From assembly GCA_964399865.1 (NCBI GenBank), contig CAYNRJ010000001.1, positions 266,050-330,049 on the forward strand: DNA of 64,000 nt, given 5' to 3'. The position numbers were made by a program, and so were the translations under genes. The notes beneath the pieces are model-generated. The model was not told the origin of the DNA. It did no database searches and saw only the letters and a list, made by a program, of their open reading frames with translations. This DNA is from an uncultured Candidatus Saccharibacteria bacterium. GTDB lineage: Bacteria > Patescibacteriota > Minisyncoccia > Phycocordibacterales > UBA2100. Of the stretch, positions 2,729 through 44,367 are shown one piece after another; within the stretch, counting starts at the first letter, position 1; each line of letters starts with the position of its first letter.

Positions 2729-3640
2729 TTACTGTGTTACTGCCGCTTCTCCGAAAAATTTGTAGTACACGCGATTGCCGAAACGAAGATCAACATATTC
2801 AAGTTCCCCTTCCCGGCCACGTAGAGCATCCGATGAAAGAACCAGCTCAAGGTTTCGCACTATTTTTTCTGCATCCTCATTGAAAGCAATCCGAAGCTTG
2901 TATCCGCGCTCAAGAGAAACAGAAAAATCTTGCTCACTCTCAATCGTTATTACTTTCGGGATGAAATTCTTTTCCTCGAGAAGATGTAGAAGCGTGACCA
3001 CCTGAGCAAACCTCTCAGGAAGAAACTTCTGACCAATAGGATCGACACCCTCAGGAAGCGCGCCTCTAAACGTATACGGGACAGTATATGGTGAAGCCAT
3101 CGGCTCCTCCGCGAAAATAAAACCATTATCATCCATGAGATAACACTCCTCAAGAACGCACCAGCGAGCGCTCGGCCCTCTCTCTGCCACTGTGACACGA
3201 ATTGATTGAGCGAGGAGCGAATCGCGCGAAATATTCACCGAGTGAAGACGAGGGAAATATTTTTGTACACCTTGTTCTAGTGCCCTCCTTGGATAGAGAA
3301 ATACATTTTCTTTTGAGAAAAAGGCATTCGAGCCATCACGAAGCTCCGCTTCGACATATGCGCGTACCAAATCCTCAGAGATATCGTTCGCACCGACCAC
3401 TTCTATTTGTTCGATCGCGAACTGAGGAAGATGTGTTGCATACCCAGCTCCCCACGTCGCTCCTGCGCCGAGAATAAGAATACCGAGTCCGATAAGCACA
3501 CGTGTCCGGCGCCTTTTAGCGCGAAGCGGTGACTTGCGCGCCGCGGGTCGCACCTTAACGGGCGTAGTTGAACGAGAGAAAAGCTCACTATAGATCCCGG
3601 GCTTTTTCTTCCGGAGATCAATTGTTCTTTTTGATGACAT
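2729..3640 (-). CDS. FtsQ/DivIB-like cell-division protein (N-terminal TM anchor plus POTRA-like region)
   Basis: Basic N-terminus, one TM helix (VLIGLGILILGAGATW) and a following QIEVVGANDISEDLVRAYV segment typical of a POTRA/FtsQ domain. Not embedded in a dcw cluster here. Confidence 0.45.
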   Translation of the reverse strand: MSSKRTIDLRKKKPGIYSELFSRSTTPVKVRPAARKSPLRAKRRRTRVLIGLGILILGAGATWGAGYATHLPQFAIEQIEVVGANDISEDLVRAYVEAELRDGSNAFFSKENVFLYPRRALEQGVQKYFPRLHSVNISRDSLLAQSIRVTVAERGPSARWCVLEECYLMDDNGFIFAEEPMASPYTVPYTFRGALPEGVDPIGQKFLPERFAQVVTLLHLLEEKNFIPKVITIESEQDFSVSLERGYKLRIAFNEDAEKIVRNLELVLSSDALRGREGELEYVDLRFGNRVYYKFFGEAAVTQ

Positions 3641-4892
3641 CTTTCCCCATGTATGTCCGGAGCACCTCCGGAATTAATATCGAACCATCTTCCTGCTGAT
3701 TGTTTTCCACTATCTGCGTAAGGATGCGGGGCGTTGCAAGCGCGGTGTTATTCAGAGAGTGAGCGTAGCGAAGGACCCCTTCGGCGTCGCGGTAGCGGAT
3801 ATTCATGCGACGCGTTTGGAAATCATGGAAATACGAAGAGGAGTGAGTCTCTCGATACTTCTGTTCGCTTGGCATCCACGCTTCGATATCATATTTCTTT
3901 ACCTGACCGAGACCTAAGTCTCCTCCACAATTGATAACAACGTGGTATGGCAATTTCAATTCTTGTAACAGGGCTTCGGCATTCCCCGTTAACTCCTCAT
4001 GGAATTTCACGGACGTTTCGTGATTCGCTTCGCACAAGACTACCTGCTCGAACTTAACGAATTCGTGAATACGAAAAATTCCCTTTGTATCTTTGCCGTG
4101 ACTTCCCGCTTCCCGGCGGAAACACGGAGAAAATGCGAAGAACTTTATCGGAAGACTTGCCTTGTCGAGGACCTCGTCCATGTAGTACCCCATCGTTGCG
4201 ACCTCAGCAGTTCCCGCGAGATAATCGCCATCTTGAGTTTTGTACAAGTCCTCTTCACTTTGCGGAAGATATCCAGTTCCTACGAACGGCTCTCTCCTCA
4301 CGAGTGAGGGCACGATCATCGGAGTGAATCCTTCGCGATTCATAAAACGCTCTTGCACAAAACGCTCTAGCGCCCATACGAGACGTGCTCCATCATTCTT
4401 CAAAAAGTATCCTCGAAAGCCTGCGACTTTCGCGCCGCGTTCGTAGTCGGCCATGTCATGCATGAGAAGAAGCTCGCTGTGATTCTTCACCGGAAAATTA
4501 AACGTCGGGATCTCTCCCCACTGACGCACTTCTTTATTATCAGCATCAGATTCCCCTTCCGGCACCGACATGTCTGGGACGTTTGGCACCATGACCATAA
4601 GAGCGCGCCATTCTTTCAAAAGTTCTTGCATGGACTCCTCTTCTACCTTAAGAGTCTCTTTCAAATCTTGCATGCGCTTAATGATCTCCTGTTTTTTTGC
4701 AGGATCTTTCTCAGATGCGATCGAATCCGACGCGGCATTCTGTTCACCGCGTTTACCGTCAATTGAGAGCTGGAGTTCACGACGCTTATCGTCGATTTGG
4801 AGGAGCTTATCGAGATCAATATTGATGCGTTTTTTCTTGGCTCCTGCCGCAACAATATCCTTATTCTCTCGGATGAATTTGATATCAAGCAT
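3618..4892 (-). CDS. serS: seryl-tRNA synthetase
   Basis: MLDIKFIRENKDIV start, N-terminal coiled-coil and class II aaRS motifs (FRRE, GYYMDE..). Full length at 424 aa. Confidence 0.9.
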   Translation of the reverse strand: MLDIKFIRENKDIVAAGAKKKRINIDLDKLLQIDDKRRELQLSIDGKRGEQNAASDSIASEKDPAKKQEIIKRMQDLKETLKVEEESMQELLKEWRALMVMVPNVPDMSVPEGESDADNKEVRQWGEIPTFNFPVKNHSELLLMHDMADYERGAKVAGFRGYFLKNDGARLVWALERFVQERFMNREGFTPMIVPSLVRREPFVGTGYLPQSEEDLYKTQDGDYLAGTAEVATMGYYMDEVLDKASLPIKFFAFSPCFRREAGSHGKDTKGIFRIHEFVKFEQVVLCEANHETSVKFHEELTGNAEALLQELKLPYHVVINCGGDLGLGQVKKYDIEAWMPSEQKYRETHSSSYFHDFQTRRMNIRYRDAEGVLRYAHSLNNTALATPRILTQIVENNQQEDGSILIPEVLRTYMGKDVIKKNN

Positions 4893-4909
4893 ACGTGGCG
4901 CTTCTATAA

Positions 4910-5788
4910 ATGCAGTATCATACTAGCATGAAAGACGGCTTAAAACTGCTCTCTCGTAAGGACTTTCCACCCCTCCTTAAAGAAATCCCAGACGCCCCAA
5001 AGAAGCTTTACGTCCGTGGCGAGCTTCCGGATTTCAGAAAAAAATGGCTCGCGGTTGTTGGGAGCCGCGCATGCACGCCGTATGGTCGACAAGCGCTCCG
5101 TCATCTAATAGAGGGGCTGCGTGGATATCCTGTCGTTATCGTATCCGGACTCGCATACGGGATCGATGCCGAAGCACATAAAGCAGCGCTTGAGGCCGGA
5201 TTGCCGACAGTTGCTGTCCCCGGCTCTGGACTTGGCTGGGATGTGCTGTATCCACGCGCGAACGTGCCTCTTGCGCGGGCAATTGTAAAAGCGGGCGGTG
5301 CACTTCTTTCAGAATACGAACCGAATTTCAAAGCGACCGATTATTCTTTTCCCCAAAGAAATCGTGTAATGGCAGGTCTTTGCAATGCGACTCTCATGAT
5401 CGAAGCAAAAGAAAAGTCGGGCTCACTCATTACCGCGCGCCTCACGACTGAATATAATCGCGAACTTCTCGTTGTCCCCGGTTCGATATTCTCCGCGGAA
5501 AGTCGCGGCACTCATCAATTCCTAAAGCTTGGCGCGACGCCGATCACAGAGCCTGCCGACATTCTCCGAGTACTCGATATTAAAACCGAAGTGCGAGAAT
5601 CTGCTGCAATGCGGGCCGATCTTTCTGAAGACGAAAAACGGGTGCTTGAAATCATCAAAAACCCGATGAGTCGAGATGATCTAATTGAGGCGCTCGAATT
5701 ACCGATTTCGGACGCAAATATTTTACTTTCAACTATGGAAATCAAAGAGCTGATTGTAGAAGTATTAGGTACGATCCGTGCGAAGTAG
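4910..5788 (+). CDS. dprA: DNA processing protein DprA (Smf)
   Basis: Rossmann-like DprA core (VVGSRACTPYG, VIVSGLAYGIDAEAH, SGSLITA) plus a C-terminal winged-helix-like tail. Confidence 0.85.
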   Translation: MQYHTSMKDGLKLLSRKDFPPLLKEIPDAPKKLYVRGELPDFRKKWLAVVGSRACTPYGRQALRHLIEGLRGYPVVIVSGLAYGIDAEAHKAALEAGLPTVAVPGSGLGWDVLYPRANVPLARAIVKAGGALLSEYEPNFKATDYSFPQRNRVMAGLCNATLMIEAKEKSGSLITARLTTEYNRELLVVPGSIFSAESRGTHQFLKLGATPITEPADILRVLDIKTEVRESAAMRADLSEDEKRVLEIIKNPMSRDDLIEALELPISDANILLSTMEIKELIVEVLGTIRAK

Positions 5789-11532: not shown

Positions 11533-11614
11533 TGCCGGGAGAGAGAATCGAACTCTCACATCTTGCGATACACGATTTTGAGTCGTGCGCGTCTACCAAT
11601 TCCGCCATCCCGGC
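11533..11614 (-). tRNA. tRNA-Leu (anticodon CAA), long variable arm
   Basis: Cloverleaf on the reverse strand: acceptor GCCGGGA/TCCCGGC, anticodon loop CTCAAAA, long variable arm, T-arm GAGAG-TTCGATT-CTCTC, discriminator A. CCA is not encoded (the tRNA is followed by CA). Confidence 0.8.
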
Positions 11615-12741: not shown

Positions 12742-12812
12742 CGGGCGATGTAGGAATCGAACCTACGACGTCGGTTTTGGAGACCGAAGTTATACCATTT
12801 AACTAATCGCCC
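12742..12812 (-). tRNA. tRNA-Trp (anticodon CCA)
   Basis: Acceptor GGGCGAT/ATCGCCC, anticodon loop CTCCAAA, T-arm GTAGG-TTCGATT-CCTAC, discriminator G. CCA is not encoded. Confidence 0.8.
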
Positions 12813-13605: not shown

Positions 13606-13688
13606 GCGCCGATGGTAGAGCGGTCAAATACGACGCGCTGTAGACGCGTTGCCTTCGGGCTACGGGGGTTCGAATCCCTCTCGGCGCA
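13606..13688 (+). tRNA. tRNA-Tyr (anticodon GTA), long variable arm
   Basis: Acceptor GCGCCGA/TCGGCGC, anticodon loop CTGTAGA, variable arm GCCTTCGGGCTAC, T-arm GGGGG-TTCGAAT-CCCTC, discriminator A. Followed by CA, not CCA. TATAAT at 13591-13596 lies just upstream. Confidence 0.8.
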
Positions 13689-20887: not shown

Positions 20888-20960
20888 GGCCACATGGCGA
20901 AGTAGCAACGCGACGGTCTGCAAAACCGTTATTGGGTGGGTGCAACTCCCACTGTGGCCT
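20888..20960 (+). tRNA. tRNA-Cys (anticodon GCA), with an atypical T-loop TGCAACT and a 3-bp D-stem
   Basis: Acceptor GGCCACA/TGTGGCC, anticodon stem-loop ACGGT-CTGCAAA-ACCGT, discriminator U as is usual for Cys. The T-loop lacks the canonical TTCRA. Confidence 0.55.
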
Positions 20961-20996
20961 CAAGTCCCTAAGTGCATATCGCCTCTGAGGGACGAC

Positions 20997-21079
20997 GCCG
21001 GGGTGGCGGAATGGTTTACGCGGAAGACTTAAAATCTTTGACCCGAAAGGGTTTGTGGGTTCGAGTCCCACCCCCGGCA
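20997..21079 (+). tRNA. tRNA-Leu (anticodon TAA)
   Basis: Acceptor GCCGGGG/CCCCGGC, anticodon loop CTTAAAA, long variable arm, T-arm GTGGG-TTCGAGT-CCCAC. Confidence 0.8.
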
Positions 21080-21143
21080 CAAGTCCCACTGAAACAGTGA
21101 GCCACCCTTACTAAATCGTAAAAAATGGGTACAATCCCCTAAA

Positions 21144-21214
21144 CCCCTCATAGCTTAATGGTAAAGCAGTTGCCTCTTAAGCAATTGACCTAGGTTCGAT
21201 TCCTAGTGGGGGGA
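21144..21214 (+). tRNA. tRNA-Lys (anticodon CTT)
   Basis: Acceptor CCCCTCA/TGGGGGG (one G-U pair), anticodon stem-loop GTTGC-CTCTTAA-GCAAT, T-arm CTAGG-TTCGATT-CCTAG. Confidence 0.7.
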
Positions 21215-22773: not shown

Positions 22774-22858
22774 GGGCAGATGGCGGAATTGGTATACGCG
22801 CTAGCCTTAGGAGCTAGTCCCGCAAGGGTTGGGAGTTCGAGTCTCCCTCTGCCCACCA
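22774..22858 (+). tRNA. tRNA-Leu (anticodon TAG), CCA encoded
   Basis: Acceptor GGGCAGA/TCTGCCC, anticodon loop CTTAGGA, long variable arm, T-arm TGGGAGTTCGAGTCTCCC (7-bp stem), ends ACCA. Confidence 0.8.
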
Positions 22859-36693: not shown

Positions 36694-37932
36694 TTAGAGA
36701 ACGAACTTACCGTCCTCGTAGATCACTTTTGTAGAACCATCTTTGAGATGTGCAGTTACGGTTCGATCTGTCGTTGAGACGACGTCTGTGTGAACCGAGG
36801 AATCGTTAAAGCCGAGGCGCTCTGCCTCTTTGGTTGTGAGTTTGGATACATCACCTGCATAGGTGTCGCGATAGCTCATGCCGAGCGCGATGTGCGAATT
36901 ACCGTAGCGACCACCCATGTTCTCGTCGAAGAGAGTTTCTGCCATGAACTTCGTGATGCGCGAGTGACGTGAGTCTGTGAGTGAGTACTCCCCGATCTTG
37001 TTCGCATTCTTTGTCGCGATCATTTCCTTGAGAAGCTTCTCGTTCGTCTTTGCTTTCGATTTTACGACGATGCCGTCTTTGAACCAGAGCTCGATACCAG
37101 TAATCTTGTTGCTGTAACGGTAGAGTGGCTGATTGATACGAATCCATCCGTTTGTACCGCGCCAATCAGGAGACGTGAAGATTTCAAACGACGGAATATT
37201 ACGGCCGCTTCCCGCGTGCCATGCGCGCTTCTCCCCAAGTGTGTACCACATGTCCATATCTTCTCCCACTGCATGGAGTTTATCGATTTTCGGAGAGAGC
37301 TTGTTGAGTCGGCTGCGATACTTTTCGATATCACGATACACGGCTTTCCACTTTCCGATTGGATCTTTTTCATCAAGGAAACACGCCTTAATGATCTGAT
37401 CCCAGTATTCTTTCTCGCTTAGCCCTGCCTCTTTCGCCATCGCAGGAGTTCCGTAGAGCGCGATCGTCCACGTAAATTTATTCTTCCACTCCTTCTCGTG
37501 GCGCCAGTCCATGAATGGTTTGAGTGCCAGCCCTCGCTGCATTATCTTTTTTGGTTCAATGCCTTTAAGAGCATGAGGATCCTTTTCCGCAAGAAGGAAG
37601 ACCGAGTGATCCATTTCATCAATGACACCCTTCAAGTATTTTGCAGGAAAATGATTGAGTTGATGTGGCTTTGCGTGTTCATAGAAATAGCGGGAGACAC
37701 TGATATTGCGGCGCTTGTCTCCCTGCTCTTCGTCGGGACCGTAATTCGACATGACGTGTCCGCCCGCATCGACTATCGCATTACATACTGCAATAAAAAG
37801 CGGCTTCGCTGATTCAGAAGCCGATACTCGTACAACCTCTCCCTTTTTAATTCCCTTCCCTCCGCCGAGCGCGAAGTTAATAAGTACATCTGCATATCTT
37901 TTAAGAATGATGTCGCTTGGTGTGTATGCCAT
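36694..37932 (-). CDS. aminopeptidase, M29 (AmpS/PepS thermophilic metalloprotease) family
   Basis: Full-length 412 aa with the M29 hallmark segments (GVSYRDTYAGD-like region, HTDVV). Confidence 0.75.
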   Translation of the reverse strand: MAYTPSDIILKRYADVLINFALGGGKGIKKGEVVRVSASESAKPLFIAVCNAIVDAGGHVMSNYGPDEEQGDKRRNISVSRYFYEHAKPHQLNHFPAKYLKGVIDEMDHSVFLLAEKDPHALKGIEPKKIMQRGLALKPFMDWRHEKEWKNKFTWTIALYGTPAMAKEAGLSEKEYWDQIIKACFLDEKDPIGKWKAVYRDIEKYRSRLNKLSPKIDKLHAVGEDMDMWYTLGEKRAWHAGSGRNIPSFEIFTSPDWRGTNGWIRINQPLYRYSNKITGIELWFKDGIVVKSKAKTNEKLLKEMIATKNANKIGEYSLTDSRHSRITKFMAETLFDENMGGRYGNSHIALGMSYRDTYAGDVSKLTTKEAERLGFNDSSVHTDVVSTTDRTVTAHLKDGSTKVIYEDGKFVL

Positions 37933-38430: not shown

Positions 38431-39915
38431 CTAGACGCGCTTTATCTCGTTCGCACGTTCCTTGATATCTATTGGATAGATCCCTGTGAAGCAGGACGTG
38501 CAGAATTGATCTTCTGGGATCCCGGTCGCTCGTATCATGCCATCGTATGAAAGGTACCGGAGCGATGTTGCGCCTAGATATTTTTCTATCTCCTCTACGG
38601 ACTGGTTCGCAGCGATGAGGTCCTTCTGCCTTGGAGTATCAATTCCATAGAAGTCTGGATATTTAACCGGCGGGGACGCAACGAGGAAGTGCACCTCTCT
38701 CGCTCCCGCATCAAAAAGCATTTTAACGATCTGTCGAGAAGTCGTACCTCGGACGATCGAATCATCGAAAACGATCACTCTTTTCCCATTAATGACTTCT
38801 GGGAGGGCAGAGAGCTTTGCATGTACACCCTGCTCTCGCACGTGCTGCTCAGGAGTAATGAATGTGCGGTGGATGTAGCGATTCTTTGTGAGTCCCATTT
38901 CAAACGGGATACCGAGAGCCTGAGCGTACCCGATAGCAGAAGGAATAGCGGTTTCTGGCACAGGGATGACAACGTCTGCTTCAAGGGGATATTCTTTTGC
39001 GAGCTCAACGCCGAAATTCCGTCGCACTTCGTAGATAGATTTCCCGAGTAGTTTGCTATCAGGACGTGCGAAATAAACGAATTCGAATATATCCAACTTC
39101 GGAGTAGGTGGCGCGACCTGTTCACTCTTCACTCCACTTTCGTCAATGACGATCATCTCGCCCGCATTAATTTCTCGAATGAATTCCGCACCGATCGGCG
39201 AAAACGCACAGGTTTCCGATGCGACAACGTATCCCCCATTCAATTTAGCGAGTGCGAGTGGCCGAATACCGTATCTATCGCGAACCGCAACCAGTTTGTT
39301 CTCCGACATTAAGATGAGAGAAAATGCTCCCGTGAAAAGCGGGTACATATTCTTGATCGCTGTAGGGAGATCGACGTTCGTCTCACGCATATGCGCAGCG
39401 ATCGCTTCGACGATCATGCGTGAATCCGAAAATTCTTTCGACGCTATTCCCTGTTTAGTCAGGTATTCGGTGAGTAGATCCCAGGTCGGCAAATTTCCGT
39501 TGTGCGCGAGTGCGATAGCCCCATCGTCTGGACTAGAGCAAAGCGAAACCGAGTCGTTAAGACTCGGGTGTGGATCTTCGTATGAGACTTTGTGGATCGA
39601 AGCTGCGGCTGCTGCGAGCATGGGCTGCGCATGTTTTACATGAGTACCACCTGCAGTTGAATATCGATTATGGCCGACAGCTATATGTCCTTTTAACCCG
39701 CCAATAATTTCATCATTAAAAACCTGAGATACCAGACCCGAGCCTTTGTGAAGCGTGATAGTGCTCCCATCTGCGGTTGCTATACCAGAAGACTCTTGCC
39801 CGCGGTGTTGCAGTGCAAAGAGTCCGAAAAAGGAGAGGCGCGCAACATCGAGGCCCTTGCCGTAAACGCCGAAGACCGCGCATTTTTCCCCAAGGTTGCG
39901 CATGGAAGCAAGCAT
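38431..39915 (-). CDS. purF: amidophosphoribosyltransferase with an 11-residue propeptide before the catalytic Cys
   Basis: MLASMRNLGEK-CAVFGVYG matches the N-terminal nucleophile Cys after a B. subtilis-like propeptide. Also has the PRTase motif and a C-terminal Cys cluster. The start was set at 39915. Confidence 0.85.
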   Translation of the reverse strand: MLASMRNLGEKCAVFGVYGKGLDVARLSFFGLFALQHRGQESSGIATADGSTITLHKGSGLVSQVFNDEIIGGLKGHIAVGHNRYSTAGGTHVKHAQPMLAAAAASIHKVSYEDPHPSLNDSVSLCSSPDDGAIALAHNGNLPTWDLLTEYLTKQGIASKEFSDSRMIVEAIAAHMRETNVDLPTAIKNMYPLFTGAFSLILMSENKLVAVRDRYGIRPLALAKLNGGYVVASETCAFSPIGAEFIREINAGEMIVIDESGVKSEQVAPPTPKLDIFEFVYFARPDSKLLGKSIYEVRRNFGVELAKEYPLEADVVIPVPETAIPSAIGYAQALGIPFEMGLTKNRYIHRTFITPEQHVREQGVHAKLSALPEVINGKRVIVFDDSIVRGTTSRQIVKMLFDAGAREVHFLVASPPVKYPDFYGIDTPRQKDLIAANQSVEEIEKYLGATSLRYLSYDGMIRATGIPEDQFCTSCFTGIYPIDIKERANEIKRV

Positions 39916-39985
39916 TGTACCAGATAGCTGCGGGAACGCTAGATAAGGTTTTGGGCGCACGCGACAAAGTCGCGTGCGCCCTTTT

Positions 39986-40558
39986 CTACGACCGACGGAT
40001 GAAGAGCCAGCGCTCGCCGTCCTTCGGCATGGGAAGCGCTTCGAGCAAAGCGGTTCGTGGCAATCGTTCGCCGAGGTCCACGACCGCGCTCCAGTCGTGC
40101 ACATCGGGCATTGTTGCCAAGGTGACGGGACGAAACCCTAGGATGCCAGCGGTACGCATCACCGGAAACGCGTCAGTGATGAGGAAGAGACCTTTGCCCT
40201 GAGGCGCTTTCGCCACGAGCTCAGTCATGAGATCGAACTGTACGCCATTCCCGCGTAGCTCAGGCGTCACCCAGACCGTCCCCAACTCGTACCAGCCATC
40301 GACTGCGGTGCGCCAAAGCGCAGCATACCCTTGGACGAAACGCAGACTCGCCACAGGCGAATCGATCTGCCGCACCACCGCGCGCCCAGCGTAGAAACGC
40401 TTCGAAAGCTTTCTCGCCGTTGTCCGGGCAGAGAAATACTTCCCCTCCGCTCGAATCTGCTCAGAAAGAACAATCCACCTATCCTGCATTCGAATGACCT
40501 CCTCATGAATGCAAAGCGGCCTCCGATTGAGGCCGCTTTGGAAATTTTGTAGAGACAA
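39986..40558 (-). CDS. putative GNAT-like N-acetyltransferase (GC-rich gene)
   Basis: GWYELGTVWVTPELRGNG resembles the GNAT motif A. Weak. The start is uncertain. Confidence 0.35.
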   Translation of the reverse strand: MSLQNFQSGLNRRPLCIHEEVIRMQDRWIVLSEQIRAEGKYFSARTTARKLSKRFYAGRAVVRQIDSPVASLRFVQGYAALWRTAVDGWYELGTVWVTPELRGNGVQFDLMTELVAKAPQGKGLFLITDAFPVMRTAGILGFRPVTLATMPDVHDWSAVVDLGERLPRTALLEALPMPKDGERWLFIRRS

Positions 40559-40665
40559 AAACTCTAAACGACCTCAATCATTGAGACCGTACGGCGGCAA
40601 TTCATTGTAGATTTCGCGCTCATGTATTTCTTTTATACCATAGCCCCATATTCGTGCAATAAGAA

Positions 40666-40696
40666 TGCGGGCGCGCCACGAGGGCGCGCCCGCATG
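40666..40696 (-). terminator. GC hairpin gcgggcgcgcc/ggcgcgcccgc immediately downstream of the hisG stop
   Basis: Read directly from the sequence. Confidence 0.4.
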
Positions 40697-40708
40697 CAGC
40701 TTGCGACA

Positions 40709-41611
40709 TTACAAGGTCGCGATGACAGCCGATATCGGGCTCACGAGGAACCCCTCCGCACCGGAGGCTGCGCAAACAACGATGAGGTGATTCGCGCTCG
40801 TGGCAGGAACGACAGCGCTCACCGAATGGAACGGCGGCGTCCCAGAAAGCGAAGTCACGGTCGGATTGCGCATCGCAGGGAGAAGCTTCAGGACATCTCC
40901 GAGGCGAGTATCGGGCACGTTCATCGTGAGAAGTACCTTACCCCGTGCCTCGACGACACCCCGTAAGATTGCCGCGAGAGCGCTGACCTTCGCCGCAGTC
41001 TCTCTGTCCTTCAGCACCTTTCTATTCGCGATGAGGACGACGCTCGATTCCAGGATTGAATCGATGGCGCGCAAACGATTCGCACGAAGAGATGTCCCCG
41101 TTTCCGTCAGGCACACGCCGTACGGATAGATGTCGGGGATTTCGGCCTCGACGGAGCCCACAGACGAGACCACCGTGACGTTCTTGCCGCGCTCCGTGAA
41201 GAACGCTCTCGTTAGCCGCGGATACTCCGACAGGATACTGCTCCCATCCGGGATCGCGCTGGCATCCTTTTCTCGTCCGCTTTCCGGGCCGATGACGACG
41301 ATCCGCGCCTTGGAAGTCGTGCCGCGATTGAATTCGAGATCAGCGCAAACTTCGACGCGCGCGCCCGCTTCTCGCACAGCATCGAGCCCCGTGATCCCGA
41401 CATTGAATTCCCCGCTCTCGACGAGCTTAGGAATGCGAGTGGGCTTCACGAACCTCGCAACGTGCGGCCATGAGACGCCCTCTAAGAGGGCCTCGTTGCT
41501 GCCGGATTGCCTGGACAACATGATCCTGGCTGCCCGTAGATGGTCGACAGACCTCTCCTCGATACTCTTCCCAGACGGCAAAGCAATGGTACCCATTACT
41601 GTATTCCTCAA
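40709..41611 (-). CDS. hisG: ATP phosphoribosyltransferase, long form with a C-terminal regulatory domain
   Basis: GTIALPSGKSIEE, GSVEAEIPDIYPYGVCLTETGTSLRANRL and a HisG C-terminal domain. GC-rich. No other his genes are nearby. Confidence 0.8.
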   Translation of the reverse strand: MRNTVMGTIALPSGKSIEERSVDHLRAARIMLSRQSGSNEALLEGVSWPHVARFVKPTRIPKLVESGEFNVGITGLDAVREAGARVEVCADLEFNRGTTSKARIVVIGPESGREKDASAIPDGSSILSEYPRLTRAFFTERGKNVTVVSSVGSVEAEIPDIYPYGVCLTETGTSLRANRLRAIDSILESSVVLIANRKVLKDRETAAKVSALAAILRGVVEARGKVLLTMNVPDTRLGDVLKLLPAMRNPTVTSLSGTPPFHSVSAVVPATSANHLIVVCAASGAEGFLVSPISAVIATL

Positions 41612-41637
41612 AGATCACGCGCCTGTTATGGGACATG

Positions 41638-41665
41638 AACGCAAAACCCCCTCGCAAGAGGGGGC
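41638..41665 (-). terminator. candidate attenuator terminator (CCCCCTC ttgc GAGGGGG then UUUUGCGUU) about 27 nt upstream of hisG
   Basis: Read on the minus strand, between the leader ORF and the hisG start. Confidence 0.4.
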
Positions 41666-41695
41666 TAGTTTGATTAGGGAAAAATGGAAATCAAC

Positions 41696-41755
41696 TCAAT
41701 CCTCTCTTGCGACGAGAATTAAGTGGTGATGGATTATGTTGCTTATCTTTTGCAT
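41696..41755 (-). CDS. candidate his leader peptide MQKISNIIHHHLILVARED (19 aa, three consecutive His codons)
   Basis: A small ORF immediately upstream of the terminator hairpin and hisG. The codons CAT CAC CAC are contiguous. Confidence 0.35.
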   Translation of the reverse strand: MQKISNIIHHHLILVARED

Positions 41756-41774
41756 GTATGTTCTTTGTACCTCT

Positions 41775-42560
41775 TTATATATTTTCTGTCAATTTCAAGA
41801 GTTCGGCGTGTAAGTCTGGGTTTGCTGCAACCATCTCCAAATCCCCCAATTTCCAAGGGTTACCCTTTGTATCGGTCACCTTGCAACCCGATTCAGCAAG
41901 GAGAAGCGAAGTGGGGGCAAAATCCCACACACTTCCCGCAAGCGGTACGTACCAATCCTTGCGCCCGCACGCGGTGTAGCAGGCATTAATCGAGAATGCT
42001 CCGACAGATCTCATTTGAATACGAGACTCATCAGCGTTCGCAAGAATATTGCGCATAAACTTAACCGCCTTTCCTTGAAGCGTGGAGGAACTGCTCCCCG
42101 AAGAATTGTGAAGCGTCTTCTTCTCCGCACAGTGGATTCGCTTTCCGTTTAAAAAAGCTCCTTTACCTTTCTCGGCAAAAAACAATTCGTTCGCGGTCGG
42201 AATGTAGATGGCAGAAAGTATGACCTCATTCTTGTGAATAAGACATACCATCGTACCGAAAAGCGGGATGTGTGCGGCAAAATTCTGAGTGCCATCAATT
42301 GGGTCGATTGCCCAGAGATATCCCGTGTCACCATCTGCATTTGTCTCACCACTCTCTTCGGCGACTATGCTATGTTCTGGATATGTTTTTTTAATTGCGG
42401 AAACAATGATTTCCTCGGAAAGAAAATCTGCTTTTGTGACCGAATCAGAGAGTCGATCTGATTTCATGTATTCCACCCCGACGGTTCCGAAGAGCTCGAG
42501 CACGGCATCGCCCGCCTTCTTTGCGATTTCTTGAATGAATGTATCAGCTCCTTTAGGCAT
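41775..42560 (-). CDS. inositol-monophosphatase family protein (SuhB/HisN-like phosphatase)
   Basis: IMPase motifs WAIDPIDGT and a metal-binding Asp/Glu set. HisN-type histidinol-phosphatases belong to this family, and the gene is adjacent to hisG. Confidence 0.7.
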   Translation of the reverse strand: MPKGADTFIQEIAKKAGDAVLELFGTVGVEYMKSDRLSDSVTKADFLSEEIIVSAIKKTYPEHSIVAEESGETNADGDTGYLWAIDPIDGTQNFAAHIPLFGTMVCLIHKNEVILSAIYIPTANELFFAEKGKGAFLNGKRIHCAEKKTLHNSSGSSSSTLQGKAVKFMRNILANADESRIQMRSVGAFSINACYTACGRKDWYVPLAGSVWDFAPTSLLLAESGCKVTDTKGNPWKLGDLEMVAANPDLHAELLKLTENI

Positions 42561-43092: not shown

Positions 43093-44367
43093 TTACTTCG
43101 AAACACTGCCGCTTAGTCGCTGAAGGGCGACTATATATGCGGCTTCTCTGAGAGAGACTTTGTATTTTTCTGATGCAGCGAACACTTCGTCGGTCGCTGT
43201 TTCCATCAGCGTTTTGAGTTTGGCGAGGACATCTTCCTTCGTCCATTTTTCGTTGTGCATATTCTGATACCACTCAAAATAGGACACGGCGACACCTCCA
43301 CTATTTGCGAGAATGTCTGGAATCACGGTTACTCCTTTTTCGGCGAGCACTTCATCAGCCTCGAGAGTTGTTGGGCCGTTCGCCATCTCAAGCACTATGC
43401 TGGCTTTGATCTTTTCGACATTTTCTTTTGTGATCGTATTTTCAAGCGCTGCTGGAACAACGATGTCGACAGGCAGAGTCAGCACCTCGTCTCCCGTTAT
43501 GTCTCTTCCACCAAGTTTTTCTTTCGCCGCAGCATCGCACACAGACCCGATGCAGTAACAATTTGTGAATTGGCCAGTTTTCTTTTTGCAGGCCTGCATC
43601 ACAGAAATATCCGGAATTCCACCAGGCACATACATGCCGCCTTTTGAATCTGCGACAGCGACGACTTTAAATCCGTGGTCGTGCAAAAAGTTTGCCAGAA
43701 AACTTCCGAGGTTACCGAACCCTTGTATCGCAACTGTCATCCCCTTGGGATCTTTTTTCGCTCTTCGGAGAGCGTTAAGGAGCACGTAGCCGCCTCCATA
43801 TCCTGTTGCGCCTTCGCGGCCTTCGGAACCCTCTTTCTCAACAGGTTTCCCCGTTACTACGGCCGGAGAGTCCTTTCCGACGACTTCGCTATACCCTTCT
43901 CGCATCCAGTTCATGATCACTCCGTTGGTATTCATGTCGGGTCCTGGCACATCGATCGTAGGACCGAGGACTGGTGCGAGCTTTCGTGCAAATTCGAGCG
44001 TGAGTCGCTGCAATTCTCCTTGAGATAGTTTTTCTGGATCGACGATGATACCTCCCTTTCCACCCCCGAACGGAATATTCACAATCGCATTCTTCATTGT
44101 CATCCAGAACGACAGCGCTCTCATTTCGTCCGCTTCAACCGCAGGATGATAGCGAATGCCGCCTTTGTAGGCGCCACGCATATTGTTGTGCTGCACGCGA
44201 AACCCTTGAAAGACTTCCACGTGTCCCCCATCCATTTTTATCGGAATTGAAACTTCGACCACACGATCAGGGTGCTCCAGTCGTGCGAGTAACATTGGAT
44301 CTAATTTTAAATGTTTTGCCGCATCTCGTAATTGTGTTCTTGCTCTGTCCCATGCGTTGTCTTGCAT
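43093..44367 (-). CDS. gdhA: glutamate dehydrogenase
   Basis: GDH signature with the catalytic Lys region FGGGKGG and the NAD(P) Rossmann GFGNLG. Confidence 0.9.
   Translation of the reverse strand: MQDNAWDRARTQLRDAAKHLKLDPMLLARLEHPDRVVEVSIPIKMDGGHVEVFQGFRVQHNNMRGAYKGGIRYHPAVEADEMRALSFWMTMKNAIVNIPFGGGKGGIIVDPEKLSQGELQRLTLEFARKLAPVLGPTIDVPGPDMNTNGVIMNWMREGYSEVVGKDSPAVVTGKPVEKEGSEGREGATGYGGGYVLLNALRRAKKDPKGMTVAIQGFGNLGSFLANFLHDHGFKVVAVADSKGGMYVPGGIPDISVMQACKKKTGQFTNCYCIGSVCDAAAKEKLGGRDITGDEVLTLPVDIVVPAALENTITKENVEKIKASIVLEMANGPTTLEADEVLAEKGVTVIPDILANSGGVAVSYFEWYQNMHNEKWTKEDVLAKLKTLMETATDEVFAASEKYKVSLREAAYIVALQRLSGSVSK

Follow-up and report, generated by a model that had tools for sequence, protein, structure and literature searches.

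A probable ribosome-mediated histidine attenuator upstream of hisG in a Patescibacteria genome

The closest described system to the one considered here is the hisL attenuator of Escherichia coli and Salmonella (Rfam His_leader, RF00514), in which a short open reading frame (ORF) with consecutive His codons is followed by segments able to form 1:2, 2:3 and 3:4 pairings, and a terminator stands before hisG, in accordance with the classical logic of his attenuation (PMC3896937). In Corynebacterium glutamicum, where the his genes are scattered and many transcripts are leaderless, hisDCB is preceded by a histidine-responsive T-box leader (PMC3896937), and in mycobacteria short ORFs with a run of Cys codons, at the 5′ end of leaderless mRNAs, act as Cys-responsive attenuators (bioRxiv 10.1101/834739). 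Here we describe an element that precedes hisG in an uncultured Candidatus Saccharibacteria bacterium, within a stretch of 64,000 nucleotides of contig CAYNRJ010000001.1 (assembly GCA_964399865.1, positions 266,050 to 330,049), which as a whole is called the window and whose coordinates are used below. From its sequence and that of its relatives we consider, with a probability of about 0.8, that this element is a ribosome-mediated (leader-peptide) transcription attenuator that would make the expression of hisG depend on charged tRNA-His.

The element opens with an ORF of 19 codons, MQKISNIIHHHLILVARED, at 41755-41696 (minus strand, as are the other features of this locus), which ends in the stop TGA (41698-41696) and contains three contiguous His codons, CAT CAC CAC, at 41731-41723, as the first-pass annotation of this DNA had already recognized. 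Among the 492 ATG-started ORFs of 10-40 codons in the six frames of the window, it is the only one with HHH. Upstream of it a −35-like TTGACA (41787-41792), read directly within the last codons of the IMPase-family gene, whose 3′ end overlaps this putative promoter, is followed after 17 nt by a −10-like TACAAA (41764-41769), which ends 8 nt before the leader ATG. The geometry of locus L031 is alike (TTGACG, 17 nt, TACAAA, 8 nt, ATG), and in 12-13 of 14 loci the −10 hexamer of the best −35/−10 pair has its end at a distance of 6-8 nt from the leader ATG, these boxes having been found in a rescan under a looser rule, as the standard sigma-70 scan demands T at the sixth position of the hexamer and leaves TACAAA unlisted. 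The leader ATG is without a well-spaced Shine-Dalgarno sequence, the nearest candidate being an AAGAGG 14 nt upstream. The pair at 41787-41792 and 41764-41769 would thus be the promoter of the leader transcript, and because this geometry puts the start of the transcript at the leader ATG, the ORF would be translated from a leaderless or nearly leaderless RNA.

Directly after the His codons, RNAfold gives a strong hairpin, 1:2, the 5′ arm of which (segment 1, 41714-41724) begins within the third His codon, at 41724, and the 3′ arm of which (41704-41694) holds the UGA stop of the leader. The region of segment 2 (41690-41710) includes, in addition to this arm, the 5′ strand of an antiterminator, formed by GCAAGAGAGG (41710-41701, in the loop and 3′ arm of 1:2) and by TTGAT (41694-41690): the former is complementary to CCCCCTCTTGC, which makes up the terminator 5′ arm plus loop, and the latter to ATCAA (41670-41674), which lengthens the duplex, and in L003 the same columns read TTGC and GCAA, a compensatory change. 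The terminator, made of segments 3 and 4 (41638-41666), is AGCCCCCTC-TTGC-GAGGGGGTT at 41666-41645, followed by TTGCGTT, that is, an intrinsic terminator with a 9-bp GC stem and the U tract UUUUGCGUU, of −16.2 kcal/mol. A G+C hairpin with a U tract had been annotated here, and this part holds; the spacing of about 27 nt then given does not, as the hairpin ends approximately 48 nt and the U tract approximately 41 nt before the ATG of hisG at 41596, a TTG at 41611 apparently having been taken as the start. The segments can pair as 1:2, 2:3 or 3:4, just as in textbook attenuators. With RNAduplex the 2:3 duplex reaches −13.7 kcal/mol, compared with −5.0 for shuffled sequences (z −5.2), of which 0 of 300 do as well, and with this the antiterminator that excludes the terminator, needed for the attenuator first proposed, is found. 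The sequence features of a leader-peptide attenuator are present together: a short ORF with cognate codons, an intrinsic terminator, an antiterminator exclusive of it, and the placement of the His and stop codons relative to the pairing segments.

Following this arrangement, the transcript would begin with the A of the leader ATG or with a nucleotide adjoining it, and the 19 codons would be read from a leaderless message. If His-tRNA is plentiful, the ribosome would run as far as the UGA stop in segment 2 and cover this segment, or else 1:2 would re-form behind it, and segments 3 and 4 would then fold as the GC hairpin with its U tract, so that transcription would end about 45 nt before hisG. 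With scarce His-tRNA, the ribosome would stall on CAU-CAC-CAC, covering segment 1; the freed segment 2 would take up the terminator 5′ arm and loop as its partner, the terminator could no longer form, and the RNA polymerase would enter hisG. For a ribosome footprint of assumed size, the geometry fits: a ribosome held up at the His codons would mask segment 1, and one at the stop would mask segment 2. Where the transcript starts, that the leader is translated and that hisG responds to histidine are what we infer from it.

The hisG loci of the clade were gathered via exact-protein look-ups, a scan of species-representative genomes and a scan of metagenomes, and the same layout before hisG, in which a short His-codon ORF is followed by hairpin 1:2 and terminator 3:4, was found in 17 distinct Patescibacteria loci. 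Besides the window, 13 loci have a homologous in-frame leader ORF, and in five more its place is taken by the C-terminal tail of a TrpR-like ORF. The short leaders read MKSIGNIVHHGSILARGD (L031), MEVPINNSAHHHSIPIARGS (L011), MSRIRISTLSQHHLDPFVRED (L030), MQFIFKNMFGHHTAFISKAGVCHS (L010), MQLVQTSIFIHHSAFTSKAGVCHS (L009), MQTGKTNNFIHHTAFISKARICHS (L017), MLTKRTKTNMFHHDTFFSKAGFCHD (L015), MQPKMRSNNHHAPVFISKAGLWRS (L013), MTFAAQNSIHHDRLYSKAGICRT (L025), MQLIASKGIHHTPTFHSKAGTWYS (L007), MNVSANNLHHTGLISKVGVCHS (L018), MQSKATTFSTYHAALVSRVGVCHS (L004) and MQSMAATFYTHRTALISRAGLCHC (L008). At the aligned His site every related leader has HHH, HH, HGH or a single H, with codons that vary synonymously between CAT and CAC while CA remains invariant, and the frame is intact from ATG to stop in all 14 short-ORF loci, the N-terminal codons differing both in sequence and in number. 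The ribosome-stalling His attenuator of the first-pass annotation is thus strongly supported by the conservation of the leader in the 17 related loci, by the antiterminator, and by the covariation of the helices set out below.

The genes upstream of the element differ from locus to locus (IMPase, NYN, LepA, NUDIX, MFS transporter), and for this reason the element belongs to hisG, and not to the IMPase gene. It might still be argued that the hairpin is a plain intrinsic terminator of the IMPase gene and the HHH mini-ORF a chance ORF of the spacer, given that the hairpin lies 110 nt past the IMPase stop, on the same strand and with no other terminator between, and that it probably also ends the IMPase transcripts. 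However, hisG has this leader and these hairpins before it also in loci with an unrelated upstream gene or none, the loop and 5′ arm of the terminator covary with the upstream segment, and HHH is unique among the small ORFs of the window, so this explanation is largely refuted by the comparative data and we consider it extremely improbable.

With respect to covariation, one MAFFT alignment of 16 leaders put the subgroups out of structural register, and the loci were analysed separately as group A (that of the window, 6 loci) and group B (10 loci). As the leaders are related by descent, the shuffle counts are not probabilities, and it is the slid controls and the replacement of stems between groups that carry the argument. 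When the upstream leader was searched for the best partner of the terminator 5′ arm and loop, all 13 loci tested gave the 3′ arm of the post-His hairpin, with 2:3 energies between −13 and −23 kcal/mol; for 11 of them only 0-1 of 300 dinucleotide shuffles paired as well. The antiterminator of group B is paired in 110 of 110 cells (100%), with 4 compensatory pairs, the slid controls reaching 25-55%; that of group A, of 14 pairs, is 91.7% paired, also with 4 compensatory pairs, a value that 0 of 500 shuffles attain, and its slid controls lie at 32-56%. Unguided RNAalifold returns the antiterminator as the consensus of group B (19 pairs, 6 compensatory), and the conserved motif GGTGTTTGYCATTCC is accounted for because it forms part of this extended antiterminator. 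For the 1:2 helix the paired fraction is 86% in group A and 80% in group B, here with 3 compensatory pairs; P1 and the terminator taken together are 88.9% paired in group B, with 8 compensatory pairs, and in group A their covariation is no greater than that of shuffles. The terminator alone is 95-96% paired in both groups and is found at an equivalent position in 17 loci, although its stem has three unrelated sequences, the stem types among the loci being CCCCCTC/GAGGGGG, CGAGCTTTC/GAAAGCTCG, CGGGCTCTC/GAGAGCCCG and GAGCCTT/AAGGCTC; segment 2 changes along with the stem type, and all three pairings persist between groups.

An alternative is a switch made of RNA only (sensing a tRNA or a ligand, or bound by a protein), in which both folds would be real, the mini-ORF would not be translated and the His codons would be conserved for some other reason. 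In its favor are the conservation of much of the leader at the nucleotide level, as in GGTGTTTGYCATTCC, the fact that RNA pairing accounts for the C-terminal portion of the "peptide", and the absence of a good Shine-Dalgarno sequence at the leader ATG (AAGAGG at 14 nt). Against it, there is no match to any Rfam family, T-box included, at E≤10; in 14 loci the His codons are reached in frame from an ATG that stands at a fixed distance from the −10-like box; the variation of these codons is synonymous; five loci have a full TrpR-like ORF that continues in frame into them; and the sister element with Arg codons described below argues for codon sensing. We thus regard a switch without translation as highly unlikely.

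The five loci with a TrpR-like ORF deserve separate mention. In L003, L012, L019 and L040 the His tail and the attenuator form the 3′ end of a TrpR-like ORF of 102 aa (Pfam Trp_repressor PF01371, 6e-18), with the terminal sequences RLHGHPIPVARGG, KLHHHSTALAREG, KLHHHSTSLARGS and RLHHHSSPIARGG, respectively, each followed by the stop; L016 has a similar fusion of 110 aa (Trp_repressor 5e-19), without a U-tract terminator. Their positions, in the coordinates of each locus, are 4657-4965 (L003), ~3700-3830 (L012), 3567-3899 (L016), 3304-3612 (L019) and 3075-3383 (L040), the tails are of the type LHHH or LHGH, and the TrpR-like ORFs of L003 and L040, like the short leaders, start 6 nt after a −10-like box. 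The leader of 19 codons could be the cut-down remnant of a TrpR-like gene, or the TrpR-like fusion could be the derived form. A more far-reaching proposal is that the Patescibacteria carry a family of leaderless leader-ORF attenuators (His, Arg), in which the "leader peptide" would sometimes be a whole TrpR-like protein whose translation acts as the histidine sensor of hisG, the ORF of the window having been cut down to 19 codons, and hisG being perhaps the only his gene kept, together with a functioning starvation switch, for a role beyond histidine synthesis (a sink for phosphoribosyl pyrophosphate and ATP, or a phosphoribosyl-ATP signal); as a whole we hold this to be speculative and unlikely. 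In L019 (3725-3890), a 55-aa ORF (MAQERPNRILDEEDL...) is situated between the terminator and hisG, and begins at the position of the hisG start of the relatives, after CTCTTTGAGG.

Various observations weigh against an attenuator of the kind that we propose. The U tract, UUUUGCGUU, is short and interrupted; the leader of the window has three His codons and most relatives have two, with a single one in L004 and L008, when the E. coli his leader has seven; and the terminator stem is invariant within group A, for which reason the covariation of this helix rests on the comparison between groups. L016 and L027 have the tail with His codons and no U-tract terminator, and five GC-rich contigs from soil (L023, L024, L028, L032 and L033) carry a different leader, with no ORF with His codons. 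Finally, both leaderless initiation and the coupling of transcription and translation, which the sequences suggest, are presumed for the Patescibacteria. In detail, the tails of L016 (3880-4000) and L027 (~760-920) have HHH or HH and end in ARSGVSLK and LRKGVSL, with hairpins before hisG that are without a U tract, and these leaders may act on translation rather than on termination. The soil contigs have another conserved hairpin (AAGGTTCA...GACCTTGAGCG) and downstream structure, ~250 nt upstream of a hisG of the same clade, which is possibly a different regulatory leader.

The gene that follows the element, hisG (40709-41596), encodes an ATP phosphoribosyltransferase of 295 aa, and it is complete and, as had been annotated, of the long form: it matches HisG (3e-30) and HisG_C (1.5e-16) of Pfam and exceeds the NCBIfam cut-offs for TIGR00070 (110.3 bits, cut-off 75.75) and TIGR03455 (73.4, cut-off 40.05), which indicates a long form with both domains. 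Its start is likely the ATG at 41596, because a GAGGA (~41612-41608), the presumed Shine-Dalgarno sequence, lies 8 nt upstream and the homologues begin with M-x-x-IALP. The closest solved structure is 2vd3 of Methanothermobacter, aligned over the full length (7.6e-35), and with it and 1nh7 of Mycobacterium tuberculosis the protein shares both domains, the T-G-x-(T/S)-L loop and the C-terminal motif PT(V/I). The nearest relatives, of ≤58% identity, are from metagenome-assembled genomes of Patescibacteria, followed by actinobacterial and archaeal long forms at 36-40%. The unit is closed by a terminator-like hairpin at 40665-40695, with a 13-bp stem and then TCTTATTG, and homologous GC-rich hairpins lie 3′ of hisG or hisE in L003, L012, L018, L019 and L040.

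In contrast with the long forms 2vd3 and 1nh7, the acidic residue before the phosphate loop is replaced in the Patescibacteria clade by Cys or Ala: in the window it is Cys162, three positions before the (E/D/S)-(T/S)-G loop, in 9 of 9 aligned proteins of the clade it is Cys or Ala within the motif Y/H-R/P-F/Y-G-V/L-C/A-L, specific to the clade, and in 8 of 8 other aligned sequences it is D or E; the proteins of L019 and L040, read directly, likewise have Cys. Whether this marks an inactive enzyme is not settled by the mutagenesis of D179 in PaHisGS (PMC9734150), which is the only such work found and concerns the adjoining position (~Glu165 here). The Cys variant is probably active, because the next genes of the pathway follow such copies, hisE in L019 and hisI with hisE in L040.

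In the 64-kb window there are no other his genes close to hisG, as had been stated: tblastn with E. coli HisD, C, B, H, A, F and I gave no match at E≤1e-3. In the relatives, the pathway genes adjoining hisG are hisE (L019), hisI and hisE (L040), and hisC-like aminotransferases (L013, L040); in L011 argC, argJ, argB and argD lie beside it, and in a Latescibacterota outgroup the order is hisI-hisG. Thus, these lineages do have genes for amino-acid biosynthesis. The fullest cluster is that of L040 (606-5090; Kaiserbacteria GCA_016186695.1), with IMPase, DUF1003, hisC-like aminotransferase, TrpR-like ORF with HHH tail, attenuator, hisG, hisI and hisE, and because its gene order is otherwise that of the window, the latter holds a reduced his cluster in its ancestral position. 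It could then be asked whether hisG is but a decaying remnant of the lost cluster and the leader a functionless fossil, since relative to L040 the hisC-like, TrpR-like, hisI and hisE genes are absent from the locus and no further his gene lies in the 64 kb. Nevertheless, hisG is of full length and keeps all 56 residues invariant in the clade, the promoter, leader, pairings and terminator are all intact, and an identical protein, which a 613-kb NCBI contig encodes, is found on four contigs, three of which were assembled from different sequencing runs, so we consider such decay to be quite unlikely.

The minus-strand order around the element is glutamate dehydrogenase (43093-44367), a small ORF, the IMPase-family gene (41775-42560), hisG, an ORF of 167 aa of GNAT type (39986-40489), purF (~38431-39915) and an M29 aminopeptidase (36694-37932), with spacers of 180 nt between IMPase and hisG and 220 nt between hisG and the 167-aa ORF. 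The upstream gene, for which a role as a HisN-like histidinol-phosphatase had been suggested, belongs to the IMPase family (Pfam 1e-54), and the suggestion stands in that its best-scoring NCBIfam model is HisN TIGR02067 and that it has a recurrent position, adjoining his genes in L003, L031, L011 and L040 (in the last as IMPase, aminotransferase, hisG, hisI, hisE), and falls short in that its 161.4 bits are below the cut-off of 275.15; the assignment is suggestive only.

The GC excess of hisG and of the GNAT-like gene that the first-pass annotation had pointed out is real (~60% versus 47-50%): hisG has 60.0% GC and a GC content at third codon positions (GC3) of 0.71, the ORF at 39986-40489 has 60.1% and 0.69, and IMPase, purF, M29 and glutamate dehydrogenase have 47-50% and 0.49-0.54. 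The horizontal acquisition deduced from it is not supported as it was put, in view of the gene order shared with relatives and the recurring GC3 excess of their hisG. That both genes form a recently acquired foreign island, with which the leader came along or to which it is unrelated, is favored by this excess over the neighbors and by HisG being 37-58% identical to that of relatives whose PurF and M29 proteins are 77-84% identical. Conversely, the order glutamate dehydrogenase-IMPase-hisG-GNAT-purF-M29 is ancestral, being common to L003, L012, L018 and L040, in genomes labelled Kaiserbacteria or Saccharibacteria; the best HisG from outside the Patescibacteria is ≤40% identical; hisG has a GC3 of 0.74 in L018, 0.71 in L031 and 0.72 in L040 whatever the background; the spacer between the two GC-rich genes is of ordinary GC (50%); and the IMPase is also merely 53% identical to that of L003, so that the low identity of HisG is unexceptional. 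An inserted foreign island is therefore not supported, and acquisition seems doubtful; it is possible that there was an in-situ replacement by the copy of a GC-richer relative, or that the bias is one of codons specific to the gene. For genomes that differ so much in HisG and IMPase (37-58% identity), the conservation of PurF and M29 (77-84%) is itself unusual.

A second element of the same kind precedes the GNAT-like gene. A −10-like TATAAA (40637-40632) ends 8 nt before the ATG of another leader ORF of 19 codons, MSAKSTMNCRRTVSMIEVV (40564-40623), which also looks leaderless, with tandem Arg codons, CGC CGT, at 40596-40591, and a terminator, CAAAGCGGCCTC-AATCG-GAGGCCGCTTTG, lies at 40512-40540. 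Between the ORF with Arg codons and this terminator there is a hairpin, and GATTGAGG (40579-40572) is the partner of the terminator 5′ arm and loop in a duplex of −20.2 kcal/mol (1 of 300 shuffles as good), a 2:3 pairing that also holds in four relatives. Homologous leaders with RR or RARR precede the same gene in L003, L012, L018, L019, L038 and L040, and in three of these (L012, L019 and L038) the next gene is that for OTCase. With respect to its product, the similarity in sequence is slight (Pfam Acetyltransf_1, 19 bits with a cut-off of 20.7, E 0.0017; GNATs in profiles of the PDB, 5e-4), and the AlphaFold2 model (AF2; mean predicted local distance difference test, pLDDT, 93.8) has only GNATs as its top Foldseek matches, with template-modelling (TM) scores of ~0.55-0.58, from which we are confident that the predicted protein has a GNAT fold. 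The N-acetylglutamate synthase structures 2r8v, 5yo2, 5yge and 3e0k score no better than other GNATs in Foldseek, and our working reading, drawn from context only, is that of an Arg-responsive attenuator on a short N-acetylglutamate synthase-like (argA-like) gene. This sister element, which lies 1 kb downstream of the His element, gives independent support to codon-sensing attenuation as a regular device of the lineage.

As for the remainder of the window, the longest ORF of purF (38431-40104, 557 aa) has a spurious N-terminal extension that overlaps the GNAT gene, and its start is probably MLASMRNLGEKC or MRNLGEKC, just before the catalytic Cys, in agreement with the calls of 489-494 aa in relatives. 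Over the first 23 kb Rfam finds eight tRNA genes (217-287, 11533-11614, 12742-12812, 13606-13688, 20888-21214 and 22774-22855).

The Patescibacteria (Candidate Phyla Radiation, CPR) are usually described as being without amino-acid biosynthesis and with few recognizable regulatory RNAs. In lineages labelled Kaiserbacteria, Paceibacterota and Saccharibacteria, hisG and the gene of the GNAT fold would each have their own promoter-like site, a codon-sensing leader and a terminator with its antiterminator, all conserved with covariation, which amounts to evidence at the level of sequence that these organisms tune biosynthetic genes to the charging of tRNA. The arrangement suggests that transcription and translation may be coupled and initiation may be leaderless in the phylum, offers a target for a covariance model with which further switches of this kind could be found, includes the unusual case of a TrpR-like gene as leader ORF, and turns the role of a lone hisG in a reduced genome into a testable question.

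In summary, returning to the described systems, Rfam cmscan of 41400-41900 at E≤10 gave no match to His_leader or to the T-box, and at the gathering threshold the whole window gave tRNAs only; in the literature, as far as it was searched, neither hisG nor leader-peptide attenuation was connected with Patescibacteria or CPR, and for "histidine biosynthesis" and Patescibacteria nothing was relevant by title and abstract. With hisL the element shares its layout, and it differs in that its leader, in the window and the relatives, has two or three His codons instead of seven, in that this ORF probably begins at the 5′ end of the transcript with no Shine-Dalgarno sequence, and in that it would control a single gene of a member of the Patescibacteria rather than a whole operon of the Proteobacteria. 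The T-box of C. glutamicum hisDCB senses uncharged tRNA directly and has no ORF with His codons, whereas the leader of the window has one. The poly-Cys attenuator ORFs of mycobacteria are the closest precedent for a leaderless leader, as they also place a run of cognate codons in an ORF at the very 5′ end of the mRNA; they correspond to another amino acid and another phylum, and in the element of the window a covarying terminator and antiterminator are visible, from which a control of termination can be argued on sequence grounds. Thus, in a phylum for which we found no attenuators described, the element is independent in sequence of those known, and would reach the same logic as hisL with few regulatory codons and a leader ORF that is probably leaderless.

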